64,000 nucleotides of DNA from the IMG/VR virus record IMGVR_UViG_3300031555_004297. One strand, written 5' to 3'. Positions within the stretch are counted from its first letter, which is position 1, and the number at the start of each line of letters is the position of its first letter. A program made the position numbers and the translations under genes. Under the pieces are notes generated by a model. The model did not search any database, was not told the origin of the DNA, and saw nothing but the letters and a program-made list of their open reading frames with translations. This DNA comes from a virus. Lineage: Duplodnaviria; Caudoviricetes. Shown here one piece after another: positions 2,987 to 63,180 of the stretch.

Positions 2987-3433
2987 GATATATCCTCCTT
3001 TCTAAAATTTGGTTTGAAACCATAATAAATATCAACAATAGAAAATTTGATTTTGTTTAAACCTCTCCTTTCTATAACATTATAATAAGATAAACTCCTT
3101 GCTAGAATTTATCTGCTATATCTTTAGGGATACGAAGATAAACATATTCATATCTTTTACCTCGTTTCGGTAAAGATTTTTCGAAGCATGTTTGCTTTTG
3201 CGATAAAGGCATGAGTTCACATGTTTTGATCATTATCTATCATACTTTTTGGTATGCGTAGATACGCAAAGCTGCTAGTTTCATGAAACTTGTATTCGGC
3301 AGCGAAAACACTTAAAGCTAGACAGAATGTTGTGAGCATTCTGTCTAGATCTTTATATTTATCATTTAATACAGCAATTTACCTCCTTTCAATGGAGATA
3401 TGTGATTATCTTTTATTGATAATCTTCATAGAT

Positions 3434-3496: not shown

Positions 3497-3612
3497 AACT
3501 ATATAATAGGGATTCTTGCCACAATTCCTTGCTTTTCGTTCGTAAAGTCATAGTTTCAAAGTCCTTTCGTGCTGTGTACGAGCTGCGTGCGTTGCAGCTC
3601 GTACATGGATTT
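3497..3612 (+). ncRNA. Candidate small RNA 1 (late promoter, anti-SD/start segment, 12-bp hairpin)
   Basis: AACT-ATATAA-TA at 3497-3508; CATAGTTTCAAAGTCCTTTC at 3549-3568; stem 3575-3586/3594-3605; no RBS-led ORF on this strand. Confidence 0.5.
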
Positions 3613-3633: not shown

Positions 3634-3747
3634 AACTATTTTATAATTCATTCAAATGCCATTGGATGATAAAGGAATTTCATTCATATCAGTTGCTCCA
3701 TTTTTGTCTACATACTCTTAGCTGAGTATGTAGACGCTCTTTTGTTT
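3634..3747 (+). ncRNA. Candidate small RNA 2 (late promoter, anti-SD/start segment, 12-bp terminator)
   Basis: AACT-ATTTTA-TA at 3634-3645; CATATCAGTTGCTCCA at 3685-3700; stem 3706-3717/3724-3735 followed by a T-rich tract. Confidence 0.45.
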
Positions 3748-3762
3748 GAAAGGAGAATTTAT

Positions 3763-4578
3763 ATGCTTACACCAGTTTTAAATCCTTTATATGAGAATTT
3801 AAAGAAAGAGATAAAGCAATATGAGATAAATGAGCAATTATCATTTGATGAAACGCTCCAAGAATTAAGAAAGGACAAAGAAGATAATATTTATTCTATT
3901 TCTGGTCCAGATAAATATACTGGATCTGTATTTAGATCTAATAACTGTGGAGATTTTATGGTTACAGAATATTTCAATTATGATAAAATAGCCATAGTAT
4001 TTATGAATAGCGGATATAGAATGCTTGCTAGAGCTAATAATATCAATAAAGGTGAAGTCAAAGACCCTTATGCAAAATCTATTATGGGAGTTGGAAGTAT
4101 TGGAGTTGGCCCTTATAAAGTTGATGGTTCTCCATTTGAACGAATGATCTATTCTAGATGGAGAGGAATATTAGACAGATGCTATGTAAAGAAAGAACGA
4201 CGAAAAACAGTTCATTTTGAATGGCACAATTTCCAATACTTTGCTGCTTGGTTCACAGCAGAATTCTATTTGGTCCCATACAACACAATGTATGACATGG
4301 TAGTCGATAAGGATGTTCTAGTTCCAGGAAACGAAGAATATGGTCCTTATAGATGCCTGATACTCCCTAACTTTATAAATGCAAAAGTTCAGCTAAAAGA
4401 CTTCGAAATCGACAGAATTGAACGCCTTCAGAGCGGTACCATGACACAGTTTGAGATATTAAAGCTTTTTAAATATAAAGAAGAGAAAGAAGCCCGTATA
4501 AGATCCATGACGGAGGAATATCAAAATATTTTACCGCCGCATATATTTTTGGCAATTAAGAACTATAGAATGTTTTAA
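3763..4578 (+). CDS. Free-standing phage HNH-type homing endonuclease
   Basis: RBS AAAGGAG before ATG 3763; motifs YSRWRGILDRCY, EWHNFQYFAAW and DKDVLVPGNEEYGPYRCLILP typical of this phage endonuclease family. Confidence 0.75.
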   Translation: MLTPVLNPLYENLKKEIKQYEINEQLSFDETLQELRKDKEDNIYSISGPDKYTGSVFRSNNCGDFMVTEYFNYDKIAIVFMNSGYRMLARANNINKGEVKDPYAKSIMGVGSIGVGPYKVDGSPFERMIYSRWRGILDRCYVKKERRKTVHFEWHNFQYFAAWFTAEFYLVPYNTMYDMVVDKDVLVPGNEEYGPYRCLILPNFINAKVQLKDFEIDRIERLQSGTMTQFEILKLFKYKEEKEARIRSMTEEYQNILPPHIFLAIKNYRMF

Positions 4579-11534: not shown

Positions 11535-12632
11535 TTAATTCGTCGACTTTCTATCTGTTTTCATAAAGATATTTAAGGCAACAGAAGTAGGTTCTGTCGC
11601 ATAGACTTCGATATATCCATCGAAAGTAAGAATTTTCATAATACGACCATAGCTCTCAAGCTCATCGACAGCTGTGCCATACTCATCAGAGAGATCGATA
11701 TCCACAATCGGATAATCAGTCTCAAGAATGCCTTCAAGAGTAATAGTCTGCTTATATGGAGCATCCCCATCTGTATCAGACCAATCATTTGTATCGGCAG
11801 AAATTGTAGCATTTAAAATAAGAATGCCTTTTTCATTGTATGATTGAAGTGCCTGAATCGCTTGATCCTGAGACGTATTCTTATTATCAAGCGAATTCTT
11901 ATTAGCAGTTACTGTATCGGAGAGGGAAGAAATAGAATTAGCTAATTCTGTATTCTTATTTTCCAATTCAGTTTTATTTGTATCAACTGTACCAGCAAGA
12001 GTAGAAACTTCATCACTAACGGCATCAATACTTTCCTGAAGAGCAGTATCTGCATTTTTGCGTTGTGTAATTTCGCTGGTAATAGAAGTCTTATTAGCAT
12101 CTGCCGTAGATTTAGCAGCATTCGCAGTGTTCTTCGCAGTAGATGCAGCACTGGCAGCTTCATCGACTTCAGTTTCAAGAGCACCAATTTTAGTAGTATG
12201 CTCATTAACAGCTGTAGACATTGCCTCCAACTGCTGATTAATTGCTTCTACTCTCTCGTCGCTAGCAGATCCAGATTCAAGAGATTTAATTCTTTTCTCA
12301 TGATCATCTTTTGCCGTAGAGAGCTCAGAAGTCGTAGTCTTAAGACTATCAATTTCAGATAAAGCCTGGATTATTCCAGACTCAAGTGTAACAGTTGTAC
12401 CATCATCGAGTTCGATTTCTACAGCTCTGACTGAGTCTGCATCCATAGAAATTTGCTCTTTGATAGCATCTGTAATATTTATAAATGTCTTTTGTGCGGT
12501 TACTACATAGATTAAACCCTTATCATAATCGACAAGCAATTCTTTGGGCTGTGCCAAATCCCTAAACTCATAAGATAGAGGTCTCGAAGGGATTCGATTT
12601 TCAGCTGTAAACTGCTTATTAGAATCAGCCAT
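11535..12632 (-). CDS. Tail-fibre-associated coiled-coil protein with C-terminal beta domain
   Basis: Long heptad region; C-terminal domain similar to the two in 12754-14559. Confidence 0.65.
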   Translation of the reverse strand: MADSNKQFTAENRIPSRPLSYEFRDLAQPKELLVDYDKGLIYVVTAQKTFINITDAIKEQISMDADSVRAVEIELDDGTTVTLESGIIQALSEIDSLKTTTSELSTAKDDHEKRIKSLESGSASDERVEAINQQLEAMSTAVNEHTTKIGALETEVDEAASAASTAKNTANAAKSTADANKTSITSEITQRKNADTALQESIDAVSDEVSTLAGTVDTNKTELENKNTELANSISSLSDTVTANKNSLDNKNTSQDQAIQALQSYNEKGILILNATISADTNDWSDTDGDAPYKQTITLEGILETDYPIVDIDLSDEYGTAVDELESYGRIMKILTFDGYIEVYATEPTSVALNIFMKTDRKSTN

Positions 12633-41023: not shown

Positions 41024-41182
41024 AGTTTACTACCTCTTTTTCGTTTAGTTAATTCATTGTTTCTACCTATATAATATATGACCAAAATGAAGATTAAGAA
41101 AAAAGGTGAGAGAGCGGTTTCCCGCTCTCTCTCTGTATCATTTTTAAAGGAGATATAAAAAATGACTACTTACAAAATCAGA

Positions 41183-49962: not shown

Positions 49963-51720
49963 TTAATTAAATTCGTATACGTTATGTACAGCACTAGGTA
50001 CAAGGAACTGATTACAAGTTGCCATAATACCAATAATGCGAGCAACAGTATCAAGAATCGTAACGTCAGACATAATAGAAGTCTTAACATTGGTATCCCA
50101 TTTCTTGGTACGAATATTGTATACCATGGGTTCAGTTGCGCATGCATTAATCTTAATAATGTCAAACTTATCAGGAACGTCTCCTACATCTTCTGTAGCA
50201 TAAAGCGTAAGAACAAGCTCTCTATAAGCTGAATAGATAGCTTTATACAAAGCATTTTCTAGAGGATCTCCAGTTACAGCTACTTCAGAAGTGGCATTAT
50301 CGCTGTCAGCTGCATCAACATTATACAGTTCTACAATAGCTTTTACAGCAGACAGATTAGCAGCAAGGCCAACACCATTAGCTCCAGCGGAACGCAGGTT
50401 AAGTACAGCATCTTCTACAAGATCGCGGAGAGCATCTCTATCAGTTTGTGTAAGTCCACCCACATAAAGCTCTACCATATTACATTCAAGCGAATGCAGG
50501 CGACGCTTAAGAGTTCCGATAGTTCTAGCATCTTCACCCTCCTTAGAAGCGCGATCAATCTCTGTTCTAAGGAAAGCAATAAGATTATTGTAGATTTCAG
50601 AATATGATCCATCTTCATTACGAAGAAGAGACGGGTTAACAAAAGTTGTCTTCTCAGAATAAGAAACAACCTTATCACAATGTCCAGCCCAGTTCTTAAT
50701 CGTAGACGGAGTGGGAGCTCTTCCAGCTTCTACATCGGCCTGATATACCTTAGGATCAATATACTTACGAATCATCTTCGCACCGCACATTCTTGCAAGA
50801 TCCTCAAGCTGCTCAGGCTCATGATACTCGGTAATCACGCACACGGGAAGCTTATTTTCAGAAGATGCCTGAGCCATATAATTGATAAGACTATCCATAG
50901 AACCAGACAAATCCTGAGAAATCTTAGGAGCAAAGATTACAGTGGGCACAATCTCATCATAGTTTCCATCATTTACAGGAGTAATGAGATTCTGAGAAAT
51001 AATAGAACTAAGATAAGCAGCCATTTCTGCTGTATCTACAGGATGCTCAAAGAAGTAAAGTTCAGGATTAGGAACTTCACACGTATTGGTTTTGGGATTG
51101 GTAATGTAACAGGGATTATTATAACCACTATTAAGGGTCATACCATCATAGCTCTTGATTACCATCTCAGTGCCCATCGCGGGGCTTACATCGATATATG
51201 CACTGTTACCAAACTGCTCATAAATCTTATAAAGCGTCTGGGCAACAAATTCATTACCATTTGTAGAAATCATTGCAATATCATATACATCCTGAAGGGT
51301 GAGCTCAGTTGCAGACATCTTGATTCTAGCTTTAATATTTTCTACGACCTTTTCAAGAGCCTTAACAATCTCTACAGGTCTATACTTTCCAGAGGCTTCG
51401 ATCTCCTTAATCTGATTAAAGATAAGATTAGAAAGAAGTACTGCCGAAGTAGTACCATCGCCAACAGTCTTTACGATGTGACGAGTAATAGACTCGATGT
51501 CATCCTTAATAGACTGCTCGATAATACCATTATACTGAATAGATCCGAGAATGCTATGGCCATCTTTTGTATAACGAGCAAATGCATTCTCTTTCTTCAA
51601 ACAAGCATTAGATCCATTAGGACCAAATGAATGCACAAGAATCTCAGAAAGCTCTCCAAGAACATTCGACTGAACTGTTCTCAGTGTAGAGCCTCTAACT
51701 ACGTTGTTGATAATTTTCAT
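49963..51720 (-). CDS. Phage GroEL-like chaperonin
   Basis: SFGPNG, TKDGHSIL, VGDGTTSA, VEDAV. Confidence 0.92.
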   Translation of the reverse strand: MKIINNVVRGSTLRTVQSNVLGELSEILVHSFGPNGSNACLKKENAFARYTKDGHSILGSIQYNGIIEQSIKDDIESITRHIVKTVGDGTTSAVLLSNLIFNQIKEIEASGKYRPVEIVKALEKVVENIKARIKMSATELTLQDVYDIAMISTNGNEFVAQTLYKIYEQFGNSAYIDVSPAMGTEMVIKSYDGMTLNSGYNNPCYITNPKTNTCEVPNPELYFFEHPVDTAEMAAYLSSIISQNLITPVNDGNYDEIVPTVIFAPKISQDLSGSMDSLINYMAQASSENKLPVCVITEYHEPEQLEDLARMCGAKMIRKYIDPKVYQADVEAGRAPTPSTIKNWAGHCDKVVSYSEKTTFVNPSLLRNEDGSYSEIYNNLIAFLRTEIDRASKEGEDARTIGTLKRRLHSLECNMVELYVGGLTQTDRDALRDLVEDAVLNLRSAGANGVGLAANLSAVKAIVELYNVDAADSDNATSEVAVTGDPLENALYKAIYSAYRELVLTLYATEDVGDVPDKFDIIKINACATEPMVYNIRTKKWDTNVKTSIMSDVTILDTVARIIGIMATCNQFLVPSAVHNVYEFN

Positions 51721-51738
51721 AGTTCGATTTCTCCTTTA

Positions 51739-52404
51739 TTAGTTTTCGTCCTGATCAGTGATATATGCTGACATAATTTCAATGTCATGGATATCTCCTA
51801 GATTAATAACAAGTTCAGGGCTTAATAATGTAAAGTCATCTTCGCTATAGTTTTCACTAAAGTTTAAAACAACAATACTTTTGGGACCTGGATAATCATA
51901 CATTAGAGCATGTTTATAGTTTCCGACAATTACTCTATTGTATTTGGTAAGGTCCACATCTTTACGCTCCCCTGTTTCGATAGCCACACTTGGGAACTCT
52001 TGAGTTACAAACTTCTTCTGTGCTTCATTTTCGCAATACACGGCTATCTTAACAATATCACCTCTACCTATTTTACTATAAGCAGAAATAAGGGTAGTAG
52101 CATTTGTCTTGAAAGCGTATTTGCCAAGAATGCACATTTCGTAATCGGCCCAAAGAGCATTAAGGACAGATTCAGAATGTTGTTTAAATTCATCTCCTAT
52201 CATAAGAGATTTAAAAACATCATCCTTATTTTGAGTTCTAGCTAATTTCCAGTCTAGGTCGGATGTATAAAGAACTCTGTGTTTATCAAAGTTCTGTAAT
52301 GCAGTCTCCCTATACTCACCAGCTAAAAACTTGATTGTAGAAATTTCTCTATCAATAAGAGAGTAGAAATCAAATAAAACACTGTTTTGCATAGTTTCAC
52401 ACAT
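51739..52404 (-). CDS. Hypothetical protein
   Basis: ORF in operon. Confidence 0.65.
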   Translation of the reverse strand: MCETMQNSVLFDFYSLIDREISTIKFLAGEYRETALQNFDKHRVLYTSDLDWKLARTQNKDDVFKSLMIGDEFKQHSESVLNALWADYEMCILGKYAFKTNATTLISAYSKIGRGDIVKIAVYCENEAQKKFVTQEFPSVAIETGERKDVDLTKYNRVIVGNYKHALMYDYPGPKSIVVLNFSENYSEDDFTLLSPELVINLGDIHDIEIMSAYITDQDEN

Positions 52405-54898: not shown

Positions 54899-55279
54899 AT
54901 GAATGATATTATAAATTTCTATGATAAAATGGATTTAAAATATCCTGAAATAGGAATAGCTATACAGGATATAGATAGAAGAAATCCAGGAATGGTAAAG
55001 TTTATTATTCCTATTCTAACGCCGAATCTAGATAGCTCTAAAGCATTTAATAAGACTATCTATCAGAATAAAAATAATTTAAAGAATAAAGCTATTGCAT
55101 TTGATATCAAAAATATATCTCTTACAAATTATGTCATCATTCCTATGCCTAAGGAAGTTTGTATGTCATATGATATGGAAGAAGATCCTATTATTCCATC
55201 TGGCTCTAAATGGATCTTATCTTTCATTGGTGGAGATATAACAAAACCAAGGCCTATTGCTAGATATCTTGAAATGTAA
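54899..55279 (+). CDS. Small protein resembling a baseplate-spike OB-fold domain
   Basis: IPSGSKWILSFIGGDITKPRPI; late promoter 54870-54881. Confidence 0.45.
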   Translation: MNDIINFYDKMDLKYPEIGIAIQDIDRRNPGMVKFIIPILTPNLDSSKAFNKTIYQNKNNLKNKAIAFDIKNISLTNYVIIPMPKEVCMSYDMEEDPIIPSGSKWILSFIGGDITKPRPIARYLEM

Positions 55280-55448
55280 ACAAATCGAATACAGCTGGAG
55301 AACGCGCTCCAGCTGTATTCTTTTTTGCGGTAAAATAATTTACGGAGGAGAAATCAACAACAATGAAAAGAAAACCATCACGTCTCACCACATGGAGGTT
55401 CAGAAATTATGACAAAGGCAGTAAGTTCATCATAATTAATTTATTGTT
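55280..55448 (-). ncRNA. Candidate small RNA 3 with two anti-SD/start segments
   Basis: AACA-ATAAAT-TA (55448-55437); complements of GGAGG..ATG at 55344-55365 and 55392-55411; 14-bp stem 55287-55300/55307-55320. Confidence 0.55.
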
Positions 55449-56631
55449 AATATCTATTCTCCACAATGTCGGGATAACTTACGAAAAGTCCGTAAGATTT
55501 ATGCTTGTAAACAACTGTAGAAGAAAGTTTATCGCGAAGAGCAACAAACTTATCATATGCAGTATTCCACTTGCCAAGCTCGAACTCATCACAGTTCTGA
55601 GAGTTACGATATTCGTCACAAATAGAAATATTGCTATTGATCTGCCTCATAAGGTAAAGAGCATCATCTTCATCTTCTACATTCTTAACCTGCATTGCAA
55701 GTTCATAATAAGCAGAATCGATCATCTTAAGGTTCTTCATTCTCATTTTTCTAAGAATCTTCTGTCCCACAGATTCCTTACCAGCCGATTCGCTAAATAT
55801 CATATCATCATCGATTCTCTGAATACGACGATATACATTACCAATCTCAAGCTTTTCAAGTCTAGAGCCGGTCATTGCCTTCATATCAGCAAGAGTCTTC
55901 ATAGCTCCAATACGCTGAAGCTTGATCTGGCGGTATAGACTAAGAGTCCAGCTAAAGATAATAAACTTGCTAGTCTCGCTATTCTCATAAAGCTTCATAT
56001 TGCCATTATTGATCTTTCTATATGCATCTACGAGATCTTCTTCCATTCCATATGCATTAATAAATTCATCATTGTAAATCTCAGCAACATCGGAAGTATA
56101 GAAGATAGAATCACACTTAGAAAGATAATCTTTCAGTCCATATGCAAGAATCTCTTTATAATGGATAGACTGGGATACACGAATATGATCTTTATTGTTA
56201 GCCAGATAGATATTGAGGGCATTGCGAGCATTCTCGATAGGAGTAGAATCTCCAGTAAGATGATTAACTTCTCTAAGAAGAAGCGCTGTAAGTCCTCTTA
56301 CAGAAATATCGGTAACAGGATCGAAGAGTTTAGAATCAAACTCGACAAGATAGCTGCTAATACGATACTTCTCTTCATCATTGGCCAAATATCCATAAAT
56401 TTCATCAGCATCAATCATAGGAATAATCTTAATGCCGAAATACATATTGTCATTATTTGTTGTATATAGAACCTCTTTACACTCAGAATCTGTAAAGAAA
56501 CGATTTAATTCATTCTTTAAAGATCTAAGATCTTCAGGCTCCACAGAAGTAGTCTGATCTTTCATTCTAGCAAATACAGAATGAAAGACAGAAAAGTCGT
56601 ACATAATTTCGCTCATGTTTATATCCTCCAT
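55447..56631 (-). CDS. Probable virion/head protein
   Basis: Downstream of capsid gene; late motif 56664-56675; IFSE|SA site. Confidence 0.6.
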   Translation of the reverse strand: MEDINMSEIMYDFSVFHSVFARMKDQTTSVEPEDLRSLKNELNRFFTDSECKEVLYTTNNDNMYFGIKIIPMIDADEIYGYLANDEEKYRISSYLVEFDSKLFDPVTDISVRGLTALLLREVNHLTGDSTPIENARNALNIYLANNKDHIRVSQSIHYKEILAYGLKDYLSKCDSIFYTSDVAEIYNDEFINAYGMEEDLVDAYRKINNGNMKLYENSETSKFIIFSWTLSLYRQIKLQRIGAMKTLADMKAMTGSRLEKLEIGNVYRRIQRIDDDMIFSESAGKESVGQKILRKMRMKNLKMIDSAYYELAMQVKNVEDEDDALYLMRQINSNISICDEYRNSQNCDEFELGKWNTAYDKFVALRDKLSSTVVYKHKSYGLFVSYPDIVENRY

Positions 56632-56760
56632 TTGATTTATAGAGTATCTGATCTTTAATCAATTATTTAATAGTTGACTCAAGCAAATAACAAAAGGAAG
56701 AGAGCCGAAGCTCTCTTCCTAGTGTTTTATGATATATTCAGACTACAGGAGGTGTCAGAA

Positions 56761-59447: not shown

Positions 59448-61886
59448 TTAATCTTGGTCCTTTGGAGCATCATAGTATTTCTGTCCGAGATCTACTTTCA
59501 TTTTATATTTAATTCTTTGAAGCTGTCTTTCAAGATTTCTCTTTGTCATAAGAAGCTGTTTTAGTGCCTTCATATCATTCTTCTGCTCAGCAATCTGAAT
59601 GTATTTATCGCACATCTTCATTTCAATCTCAATTTCATCGATAACCATCTGACGCTCTTTAGACTTAAACTTAGCAGAAACTCCAAGATAACCAAGAGTT
59701 CCAATTACTGCAATAGCAGGATGGATGAAGAACGAAAGTCCAGCATTAACGATAGCCATTTTAATAACTTTAGAAGCAGACGGGAGAATTCTTCCTTTAA
59801 TAATAGCTTCTCTATTATCATTAGTAAGAGCATCCTCTACACCTTTCTTCATATTATTAACACTAAGGTCAATAGTCTGAGACATTTGTCTATCCTTATC
59901 TTTAAGTCCAGTCATTGCTTTTCTCAATTTCATAGAAGCTAATTTCAATGTATTAGAAATAGAAGCCTCCATAAGAGGAGAAGTTTCATTAGCATTGACT
60001 GTACTAAGGAGTTGAATTCCTTGAATTGCTTCACAAATAGAATCCATTTCCATCTTTCCTTGGAATACTGTCATAGCAGAGCTTTCATCATCAGGTCTAA
60101 TCTGTTCAAGAATATTAAGAGCAGAGTGGATAGAGCTAATTCTTACAGATCTTGCTACAGTGCTCTCAAGAGTAATTTTATTTTTTCTAATATTAGAAAG
60201 CACAGACTCGAGAGATATTTTCATGATATCTTTATGGAAATCCTGAGGATATTTTGCACCAAGATAAGCAAGATCAAGCATTGCATCATTATCCGCGTTC
60301 TCCATAATTGAGAATATCATATCTTCAGTAATAGGATTAGAGTTATAAGCTCTTAATACATCTTCAAGAACAGATCCGATATGGGTGGTTGCTTTGCAGA
60401 TGTCTGCAAATTCATTAAATTCTCCAAAATCAAAATCATCAAGAAGATCATCATCTAATCCATTGGTATCTATGTCACTTGTATCGAGATCATCATCTGA
60501 TCCGATATTGTCATACATCTGATCCTGCTCTTCATCTGTGAGAAGTTCAGAATGGTACATATCTAGTTTAACAAGAGCTTTCTCAAGAGCATCTTTATAC
60601 TTCTCGAGTTTCTCTTTTTCATCCTTATCATTAGTAGAACTAATTTTCTTTTCGGTTGCTTTAATTTCGTGCTCAAAGCATTTAATCATCTTAGCAACTT
60701 CTTTGCGTTCTACATGCAGCGAGATAAATTTATCAGCAATAAATCCAACAGCTGCAACTACAGGTCCAATAAACGGAATAGCTACACTGCCAACAATGAA
60801 GAAGGATCTAAGCCACTTGAGTAGATTAGGTGTCTCCTCAATAATATTTGTCACATTGTTAGAATATAGCTTAGTAATCAACCCTTTAAGCTTGTTCTCG
60901 GGTTTGTCTGTCTTAGCAAGTTCTTCCTCTTTGAACTTGTTGAAAATATCTTCGAACTCTTTACTTTCTTTAACAGGAATGCTAATATTATTATCACCAT
61001 AATGCCTTTGGAGCAACTGATCGATAGGCTCTTCGGTCTGTTCTGGTTCGTCTTCCATGAGAATATCGATGTTGCCCATATCCTCATTTTTATCAAAGAA
61101 TAAAGTAGCCTCGAGAATTTCTTTACATGACTCACGTCCATCCGGCTTGAACAAGAAATAGTCGATAGCAGTTTCAAGAAGTTCAGACTTCTTGTAATCT
61201 ATATTATTGGATTCAAATCCATAAAATGCGGTTTCAATGACAGTATTGAACTTAACGGCCGTAGGCATTTGATAAGTATCAATTCTATTACAAAGTTCAA
61301 CAACGGTATCGCTGACACCGTTAACTCTTGTATTTTCATTGATCAGCACTTCGAGATTGAATCTCTTGGAAACTCTATTATAATTTTCAATAACTCTATC
61401 GCAATTAGCATAAATAATAGCTGCTTCGAGCATCTTAGTATATGCTTCTACCATTGCCTGATCCTTTTCTTGATCTTGAGGAATAGGAGCTTGGGGCTTA
61501 TCGGCTACAGGATGAGGCTGTACCGGAGGAGCAATAATATGCGGTTGCAGCTTATGCTGAGCAACCGTTAATCTCCTTTTAAGCAATGTTTGAGTGTGTT
61601 TTGCATCTCTAACTTTTCCGATGCCTTCATTAGCAATAAATAATCCAACTTTAGAAATTTCAGATACATTGGCTTTTTCAGAAAATGCCTGATACATATC
61701 TAAAATCTGATATAGATTTACCTCATTACAGCTTGTGATCTTAGTTTCAATCATTCTTTTCAGATCAGCAGTTCTCATTGATTTCATTCCCCGCCAATCT
61801 AAATTATGTTGTTCTCTAAATGAGCTGGTTGGCGCAGTAAGATTTTGCATTCTTTTACGAATATCGCTCATTAAAACTTGTCTCAT
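59448..61886 (-). CDS. Probable internal head protein
   Basis: 812 aa; hydrophobic-x-E|S/A sites (VKE|S, LME|AS); late promoter 61911-61922. Confidence 0.55.
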   Translation of the reverse strand: MRQVLMSDIRKRMQNLTAPTSSFREQHNLDWRGMKSMRTADLKRMIETKITSCNEVNLYQILDMYQAFSEKANVSEISKVGLFIANEGIGKVRDAKHTQTLLKRRLTVAQHKLQPHIIAPPVQPHPVADKPQAPIPQDQEKDQAMVEAYTKMLEAAIIYANCDRVIENYNRVSKRFNLEVLINENTRVNGVSDTVVELCNRIDTYQMPTAVKFNTVIETAFYGFESNNIDYKKSELLETAIDYFLFKPDGRESCKEILEATLFFDKNEDMGNIDILMEDEPEQTEEPIDQLLQRHYGDNNISIPVKESKEFEDIFNKFKEEELAKTDKPENKLKGLITKLYSNNVTNIIEETPNLLKWLRSFFIVGSVAIPFIGPVVAAVGFIADKFISLHVERKEVAKMIKCFEHEIKATEKKISSTNDKDEKEKLEKYKDALEKALVKLDMYHSELLTDEEQDQMYDNIGSDDDLDTSDIDTNGLDDDLLDDFDFGEFNEFADICKATTHIGSVLEDVLRAYNSNPITEDMIFSIMENADNDAMLDLAYLGAKYPQDFHKDIMKISLESVLSNIRKNKITLESTVARSVRISSIHSALNILEQIRPDDESSAMTVFQGKMEMDSICEAIQGIQLLSTVNANETSPLMEASISNTLKLASMKLRKAMTGLKDKDRQMSQTIDLSVNNMKKGVEDALTNDNREAIIKGRILPSASKVIKMAIVNAGLSFFIHPAIAVIGTLGYLGVSAKFKSKERQMVIDEIEIEMKMCDKYIQIAEQKNDMKALKQLLMTKRNLERQLQRIKYKMKVDLGQKYYDAPKDQD

Positions 61887-62005
61887 TGATGCCGCCTCCC
61901 TAATTTAATTTAATTATAAGTTAGCGCCTAAGTAGATCAAAATAGATTGAGTTACAAAAAAAATAAAGATGGGCAGGACTTAGGGCCCTGCCCATAATCT
62001 ACCGA

Positions 62006-62656
62006 TTAAATATACCAACCACGAGGAGTATAAGTTACCTCGGGCTCGGGATAGTTTGCCTTATCATCACAAGCGCAGTCGATACAACAGTGCTTTTTAT
62101 CATTAACAGCTGCTTGTCTTTCAAGAGCTCTATCCATAAGATCCTTCATAATATGATATCCTTCGACAAGAGCTCCGGGGTTAGAAATCGGAACAAGAAT
62201 TGCAGAAGGTCTTTCTGCATTTCCAATAATACATGCCTCTGTTACGGGACCGAGATCGTGAGTGCTACTATCTTCACCAATACCACAATATCTCAAACCA
62301 TTATTGAGAGTATTTACGATAAGAGTAGAAGTCTTACCAGCCTCAGTAATCGGAACTGCAGGAATAATTGCCGCAAAACGGCTATCATTATAACCCTTAA
62401 TATGACCATCAAGGGTATTTACCATACCATTATCAGAAAGGATTGCATGAGCCACATCCATTCTTTCCATATAAGGATACAATCTCTCGACTACATCATA
62501 AGGATCGATGGGATTATTAAAGAAATCCATGGGTTCATAAGGTGCTACGACCATCTCGGCTGCACATGCCTCACATTTTTCAAGTTCAGCAGGATCAATT
62601 CGATTAATCGCTTCTGCGGGAACCTGAATTACTTTTGCTTTAAGCTTTCTTTTCAT
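62006..62656 (-). CDS. Hypothetical protein with Cys cluster
   Basis: RBS AAAGGAG; early motif at 62719. Confidence 0.7.
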   Translation of the reverse strand: MKRKLKAKVIQVPAEAINRIDPAELEKCEACAAEMVVAPYEPMDFFNNPIDPYDVVERLYPYMERMDVAHAILSDNGMVNTLDGHIKGYNDSRFAAIIPAVPITEAGKTSTLIVNTLNNGLRYCGIGEDSSTHDLGPVTEACIIGNAERPSAILVPISNPGALVEGYHIMKDLMDRALERQAAVNDKKHCCIDCACDDKANYPEPEVTYTPRGWYI

Positions 62657-62746
62657 AGTTTAATTCTCCTTTAATGAATTAAGTATTTTTAATTGGAAGT
62701 TGACCTTCCATTACTTTTATAATATATACTCAAAAATTAATTATAC

Positions 62747-62867
62747 AAAAGAAAGTCCGAGAATCCTGCTCTGGATTCTCGGAAGAAAGGTGCCCACATG
62801 CTGCTATATGCCAAAACAACACTCGGAGGTAACAACGGAATCTGAATAACACCGTCATTGATATGTT
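62747..62867 (-). ncRNA. Candidate small RNA 4 with anti-SD segments
   Basis: AACA-TATCAA-TG (62867-62856); ACCTCCG and CATGTGGGCACCTTTCT; 11-bp stem 62756-62783 then CTTTCTTTT. Confidence 0.55.
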
Positions 62868-62877
62868 ATATTATGAT

Positions 62878-63180
62878 AAAAATATTCCGGATGGGCGTCA
62901 ACCATCCGGAATACCAGGCCCTGTTAAATAAGGGTCCTTACATACGACACAACGCCTCGGAAAATATTATGCCTTTCTTTAGTGCAACAACTCACTAGAA
63001 AGGCATGTCGGGCCGCCTCTTCTCTTATGATGCCCCATTCACACACCATAAGAGTCCATAATCAAGCTTTAATTAAGTAGCGCTTTGTATATAAAACCCC
63101 AACGAGGTCAGCTTTATATACTATTGATTATTTAAGCACCACCAAAAACAATCAATCATTGCACTACTTATATTTTTGTT
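62878..63180 (-). ncRNA. Candidate ~290-nt multi-hairpin structured RNA
   Basis: AACA-AAAATA-TA (63180-63169); at least five stems; terminator 62883-62913 plus T-tract; no credible ORF. Confidence 0.55.

Follow-up and report, generated by a model that had tools for sequence, protein, structure and literature searches.

The element described here lies in a 64,000-nucleotide stretch of viral DNA (the window), bases 64001-128000 of a 185-kb virus record. The sequencing runs that contain this DNA are feces, gut, bovine and sheep metagenomes, and the closest matches to the window's chaperonin, at ~25% identity, come from AR9, PBS1 and Staphylococcus jumbo phages. Dozens of genes in the window are preceded by AAC(A/T)-N6-TA, the late promoter of AR9 (PMC5312081); the late consensus in that phage is AACA-(6N)-TA/G, with the last base as the transcription start site (PMC5312081). 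Judged by these two features, the chaperonin matches and the common promoter motif, the window belongs to an AR9/PBS1-like jumbo phage from the ruminant gut. Looking up the host through GTDB contigs and cluster records gave no match.

Two convergent genes meet at the locus. A conserved late gene of 389 aa (also given as 389/394 aa) occupies 55447..56616 on the minus strand, and a 126-aa late gene (54899..55279, plus strand) ends at a hairpin common to both. At the end of the 389-aa gene, and overlapping its stop codon, sits an AR9-type late promoter, AACA-N6-TA (55437..55448, minus strand; predicted start site 55437), followed on the same strand by a 117-nt body and the perfect 14-bp hairpin (55287..55320). 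An earlier note on this DNA, made from the letters alone, had described this promoter-body-hairpin unit, and our analysis bears it out. With an AACA-N6-TA/G promoter in a phage of this group, the unit has the form of an AR9/PBS1-like late transcription unit. The promoter scores 12.0 with a matrix trained on 138 upstream sites, drawn from this phage and one relative, whose median score is 13.7. The hairpin is followed by T6 on the plus strand and by a weaker tail on the minus strand; as the better U-run sits on the plus strand, we read it as probably a two-way intrinsic terminator. Its structure is kept among relatives and its stem sequence varies. The unit's own promoter and terminator are recognized by their motifs and the conservation of these.

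The predicted RNA has structured ends. The segment 55282..55437 (minus strand) folds at -45.5 kcal/mol (z -5.3), mostly owing to the hairpins at both ends, of which the one at the 5′ end (55405..55437) has a 12-bp stem and a UGCC-containing loop. As the earlier note had it, the body carries two segments complementary to a Shine-Dalgarno (SD) sequence, spacer and start codon, with the antisense ATGs read on the plus strand at 55363 and 55409. The 5′ segment (55392..55411, minus strand) pairs an anti-SD with an anti-AUG that is buried in the 5′ stem, and its anti-SD is missing in the whole-genome relative G001. The second segment, a U/C-rich 3′ seed consisting of anti-AUG, spacer and anti-SD (55341..55378, minus strand), lies in the loosely paired, U/C-rich middle of the RNA; it is kept in relatives and covaries with the targets discussed below. 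An unstranded metatranscriptome contig spans 55311-55768 and ends in the hairpin, resolving neither strand nor transcript ends, and one RNA run shares a small portion of its sequence words with the locus, a weak hint at most. Rfam covariance models, including those for C4, 6S, tmRNA and riboswitches, gave 0 matches in the window at the gathering score, and ARAGORN found no tRNA or tmRNA there.

We gathered the orthologous locus from related phages, which yielded 17 distinct close relatives, this phage included, with 57-90% protein identity. Promoter, body and hairpin occur together at this locus in 16 of the 17, the motif lying at the stop codon or ≤9 nt beyond it in those 16, one of which has a 7-nt spacer. 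In L030 and more distant phages the hairpin mostly follows directly after the stop and there is no promoter; promoter and body are either both present or both absent. The position is unusual, for only 3 of 91 convergent gene ends carry the late motif at a stop, and two of these are the present locus. Bodies range from 51 to 124 nt and can barely be aligned between relatives; the layout is kept and the sequence has turned over. Nearly all of them nonetheless hold an anti-SD tract (mean -10.1 kcal/mol, versus -6.7+/-0.5 for shuffles and -4.0 for the own strand), a feature absent from most ordinary long 3′ UTRs. The 16 orthologous bodies contain 10 antisense SD+ATG sites and, on the sense strand, 0; dinucleotide shuffles gave 0.7+/-0.9 and never more than 5 in 200. 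The antisense content is thus greater than expected by chance. Some relatives have three or four antisense start modules in the body. Changes in the anti-SD are biased toward those tolerated as G:U pairs as a trend only (p=0.056).

The same layout recurs elsewhere. A genome scan recovered ~9 promoter-body-hairpin units in this phage and about as many in relatives, for the most part in orthologous positions, which supports the proposal of a dispersed set of late, ORF-less units with predicted trans pairing to translation starts. The three other units that had been listed are present: 3497..3608 (plus strand; late promoter, 5′ hairpin with UGCC loop, anti-start segment and hairpin), 3634..3736 (plus strand) and 62756..62867 (minus strand), which measure 101, 92 and 101 nt from start to hairpin end. 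A third, longer unit (3076..3346, plus strand) forms a tandem group with the first two. From one genome only, target prediction for the unit at 3634 puts the start of the 126-aa gene (54899) first (z -4.7). After the tandem units comes a 271-aa gene (3763-4578, plus strand) that matches HNH-endonuclease PHROGs; its G001 counterpart shares 79% identity, more than is usual for a mobile nuclease. Close to the 5′ end, 15 of 37 units have a UGCY motif (8.5+/-2.3 expected), a modest enrichment that is not universal.

The unit at 62756..62867, which we call family B, occupies the same spot in 13 phage sequences, and none of 15 neighbouring genes qualified as its target after correction. UUGGCA, the complement of UGCCA in the 5′ loops of several other units, is kept in 6 of 12 family B RNAs; this family could be a sponge for other units, or could target genes starting Met-Pro. 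Upstream of it, a hairpin-forming stretch (62915-62945, minus strand) is conserved in G001 (93855-93880) ahead of another terminator and may form the 3′ portion of another non-coding RNA within the gap at 62870-63170. Directly upstream of the family B unit in two other phages is a structured late-promoter unit of ~230 nt that is nearly identical between them (L053:3492-3723 and G002 185202-185438).

Outside the window, family E gave the best covariation seen beyond the focus unit. Three phages carry it with unrelated sequences, and in each of them the RNA pairs best with that phage's copy of a particular 203-aa gene (-26.8, -26.2 and -30.2 kcal/mol, versus -12 to -22), which ranked first of 82 genes; in L057 the unit is at 3027-3123 (minus strand) and the predicted target, adjoining DNA ligase, at 11926-12537 (minus strand). 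A held-out fourth family E RNA from a distant phage paired weakly (-11.2). A virion structural gene (L056:17521-18846, minus strand) has a leader with which the family C unit (L056:1368-1529, plus strand) forms 12 bp; between this phage and G001 the pairing shows a matched change from A-U to G-C that does not extend to G002, a fit in two of three phages. Genome-wide rank products over 2-3 genomes were significant for no family (p 0.10-0.82). Strong anti-SD tracts also lie ahead of hairpins in the 3′ UTRs 41132-41182 and 56720-56760 (minus strand), where no internal promoter was detected. In distant relatives that lack the focus unit, other units with as many as four antisense start modules lie close to the gene for the prohead protease (L066:8173-8520; L063:8645; L072:9812). 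In L039:13649-17931, three repeated leaders precede consecutive genes, each combining poly-C of 10-13 nt with a G-rich, SD-like stretch whose complement lies in a hairpin further downstream; from this arrangement they look like phase-variable switches.

Because the unit has no long perfect complement in three phage genomes and the energy ranking within a single genome is indecisive, we looked for targets by asking whether each RNA fits the leaders of its own phage. Each phage's RNA was paired with the orthologous start region of every phage, row and column effects were removed, and own pairs were compared across a screen of 15 neighbouring genes. Two leaders stood out: that of the GroEL-like chaperonin (own-phage residual -2.9, p=0.0007, 10 of 11 phages) and that of an 812-aa gene (residual -2.8, p=0.00025, 13 phages). 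As these were picked out by the screen, we corrected for 15 genes, giving p ~0.011 and ~0.004. The other 13 of the 15 genes showed no own-phage preference, and the single phage that goes against the chaperonin preference has a mis-spaced promoter. The signal persisted under five variations of the test, including window size, omission of the strongest phage and one phage per clade (p 0.0004-0.007), and it halved when both strands were flipped, which turns G:U pairs into mismatches. Family B, used as a control, gave no signal on either leader. Individual duplexes comprise 11-19 bp and take in phage-specific bases beside the SD.

The chaperonin gene (49963-51720, minus strand) would be paired at 51714..51737 and has a late promoter at 51804-51815. 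The 812-aa gene, which is predicted to be all-helical, starts at 61886 on the minus strand, with the predicted target region at 61881..61901 and a late promoter at 61911-61922. Its product gave no useful Pfam, PHROG or PDB match, and its low-confidence helical model resembles only uncharacterised phage proteins. Two held-out phages yielded one clear pass, two middling ranks and one failure: the own 812-aa leader ranked 1-2 of 13 in L055 and 9-13 of 13 in L054, and the chaperonin leader 3-5 of 11 in both. The unit shows imperfect complementarity, with covariation, to distant mRNAs, the held-out phages being mixed. An ungapped search for long complements in three incomplete phage genomes gave nothing above noise, the exact target pattern had no match in viral contigs, and units of distant relatives showed no preference for the chaperonin or 812-aa leaders.

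A sister phage with 89% protein identity (L018) provides natural matched variants. Its 3′ seed differs from that of the present phage by two changes: a U is missing and a C has moved by one position. Facing the missing U, an A has gone from the chaperonin spacer, and facing the shifted C, a G in the 216-aa gene at 62656 has moved from +8 to +9. These two genes, both named beforehand in the earlier note, are the top 2 of 16 for matched change. Other sister pairs, for whose choice alone we used a tree in which the wrong protein was taken for L028, give a weaker and less clean picture. Given this and the mixed result in the held-out phages, targets probably differ between lineages.

The targets proposed beforehand thus fared differently. 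Own-phage covariation in 11 phages and the matched 1-nt deletion argue for the chaperonin. The gene at 62656 stands as a candidate for this lineage by virtue of the matched shift and a 14-bp duplex (start region 62642..62672, minus strand), while across 11 phages its preference is borderline (p=0.10). The neighbouring DHH gene was rejected as a target, including as that of the 5′ segment, with p=0.66, no matched change and a rank of 59-62 of 165. In the accessibility-aware energy ranking of 165 leaders in this genome, the gene at 62656 came 6th, the chaperonin 14th and the 812-aa gene 55th. The suggestion that such RNAs shut off early phage genes is unsupported because the supported targets carry late promoters: those of the chaperonin and 812-aa genes are conserved, and the gene at 62656 has both an early-like motif (62719-62728) and a late promoter (62690-62701). 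In AR9, groEL is likewise a late gene.

Several other explanations need to be weighed against target-specific repression of phage mRNAs. A real RNA could have host mRNAs as its main targets, or could dampen translation broadly through its anti-SD, and its fit to phage leaders would then follow from a common style of start sites. Many phage leaders pair with the U/G-rich seed as well as or better than the named targets; some phages also hold 3-4 segments for which no phage target was found. A shared style should, however, touch all genes, which is not what the 13 genes without preference and the silence of family B on both leaders indicate, and the single-base matches in the sister pair land on two specific mRNAs. 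We consider this account unlikely. It is distinctly unlikely, in our view, that the pairing is real but exerted by the 3′ UTR of the 389-aa mRNA, or that it protects, processes or activates its targets. The body does double as 3′ UTR of the late 389-aa gene, which has a promoter of its own, and phage sRNAs are able to activate (PreS) or to alter processing (SviR, 10.1101/2022.04.08.487710). Yet a second promoter is kept at the stop codon, is sometimes shifted off it and is lost together with the body; sister units stand alone between divergent genes; and the duplexes span the SD and AUG themselves.

Small proteins might instead be encoded on the opposite strand, with the antisense sites as their genuine starts and with read-through of the hairpin, an alternative that we checked by frame conservation. 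Gene starts of this genome often have a hairpin followed by an SD and ATG, and the frame from 55363 is open for 191 codons. Across relatives, however, neither strand has a conserved protein frame; opposite-strand frames run from 3 to 191 aa and share sequence only among close sisters, and 9 of the 17 sequences have no usable start. The antisense SD and ATG are spaced 12 nt apart in this phage and 16 nt in G001, ACG or ATA takes the place of ATG in some relatives, and the sites either follow a terminator or come before any promoter of that strand, leaving small-protein starts very improbable. The 191-codon frame itself (55363-55938, plus strand) has a good SD and runs antisense into the 389-aa gene; it has only 23 codons in the sister phage, and we therefore take it for a shadow frame. 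A cis-encoded antisense RNA was rejected, the opposite strand having no conserved gene and lying behind the terminator. There is finally the notion that the bodies are inverted gene-start fragments of no selective value, or pyrimidine tracts that happen to precede a terminator. Start regions are of low complexity and the bodies align poorly, but the enrichment over shuffles, the rarity of such tracts in ordinary long 3′ UTRs, the retention across a clade of 57-90% protein identity and the gene-specific covariation make its probability close to negligible.

At the level of sequence, the cassette, its non-coding character, its anti-RBS content and its gene-specific covariation are established. 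On this basis we think it probable that the element is a gene for a trans-acting, base-pairing small RNA that covers the starts of the phage's own late mRNAs and represses them. Going by the AR9 consensus, the late (non-virion) RNA polymerase would start at 55437 and stop at the hairpin. The covariation suggests that the 3′ seed would then pair over the SD and start codon of the chaperonin, 812-aa and, in this lineage, 216-aa mRNAs. Bacterial trans-encoded sRNAs cover ribosome-binding sites, and some derive from 3′ UTRs with an internal promoter; if the phage RNA acts in the usual bacterial manner, covering of the SD and AUG would block ribosome loading. Since the RNA changes in step with the ribosome-binding sites of these three genes, an RNA of ~150 bases probably limits translation of the chaperonin and the two other genes late in infection. 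As RNA and targets use the same late promoter class, its accumulation would most likely cap or delay chosen late and continuously expressed proteins, with early genes not being switched off.

The ~9 similar units per genome would each apparently have their own targets. We give even chances to a broader picture, in which AR9-like gut jumbo phages have a network of ~10 late sRNAs per genome, each with 1-4 antisense start modules that are gained, lost and retuned as leaders drift, to control how much of the chaperonin, virion and replication proteins is made, and when. These RNAs perhaps share a 5′ loop handle, and some modules may face host or rival-phage mRNAs. In large virulent phages, late non-coding RNAs have been reported without established targets (PMC4933390, PMC10914365). 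Gene control in these phages is explained mostly by promoter classes, and we found no description of such an sRNA layer for them. The candidates presented here supply named phage targets together with natural matched variants, so the role of late phage RNAs becomes testable by simple reporters. AR9, which grows on Bacillus subtilis, offers a mapped transcript of the same layout, and the set of units would be a clear record of sRNA-target co-evolution.

In the literature, as far as our incomplete coverage of it goes, no such sRNA set is described for the AR9-like phage group. The AR9 late start site 75478 (PMC5312081 Table S3; L059:15478, minus strand) has the same promoter class, a short CCUCC body and a long hairpin, a likeness of layout; it is listed only as antisense to g090, with no sRNA function proposed. 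The sRNA1 and sRNA2 of PAK_P3 and the phiKZ ncRNA candidates (PMC4933390, PMC10914365) are likewise abundant late intergenic RNAs of virulent phages and proposed translation silencers. They differ from the present unit in that no targets are established and no anti-RBS covariation is reported, and the PAK_P3 RNAs are without start sites of their own. C4 of phage P1 (PMC8198154) is also a phage antisense RNA that restrains phage gene expression, but it belongs to a temperate immunity circuit, where it controls icd-ant, its neighbours in the same operon, whereas the targets here are 3.6 to 7.3 kb away in other transcription units and the RNA, unlike C4, has no Rfam match. SviR of the Vibrio satellite PLE (10.1101/2022.04.08.487710) similarly acts in trans during lytic infection, has several targets and lowers translation of phage mRNAs; it is a satellite's product directed at the helper phage, and its sequence is conserved, in contrast to the predicted self-regulation of a phage by dispersed RNAs. 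The nearest likeness in construction is to bacterial trans-encoded sRNAs (PMC12197685), which share an own promoter and terminator, the lack of an ORF and short imperfect pairing over the SD and AUG of several distant mRNAs. Here the RNA is encoded by a jumbo phage, predicted to be read by a phage polymerase and aimed at the phage's own mRNAs, and its seed tracks its targets without conservation of sequence.
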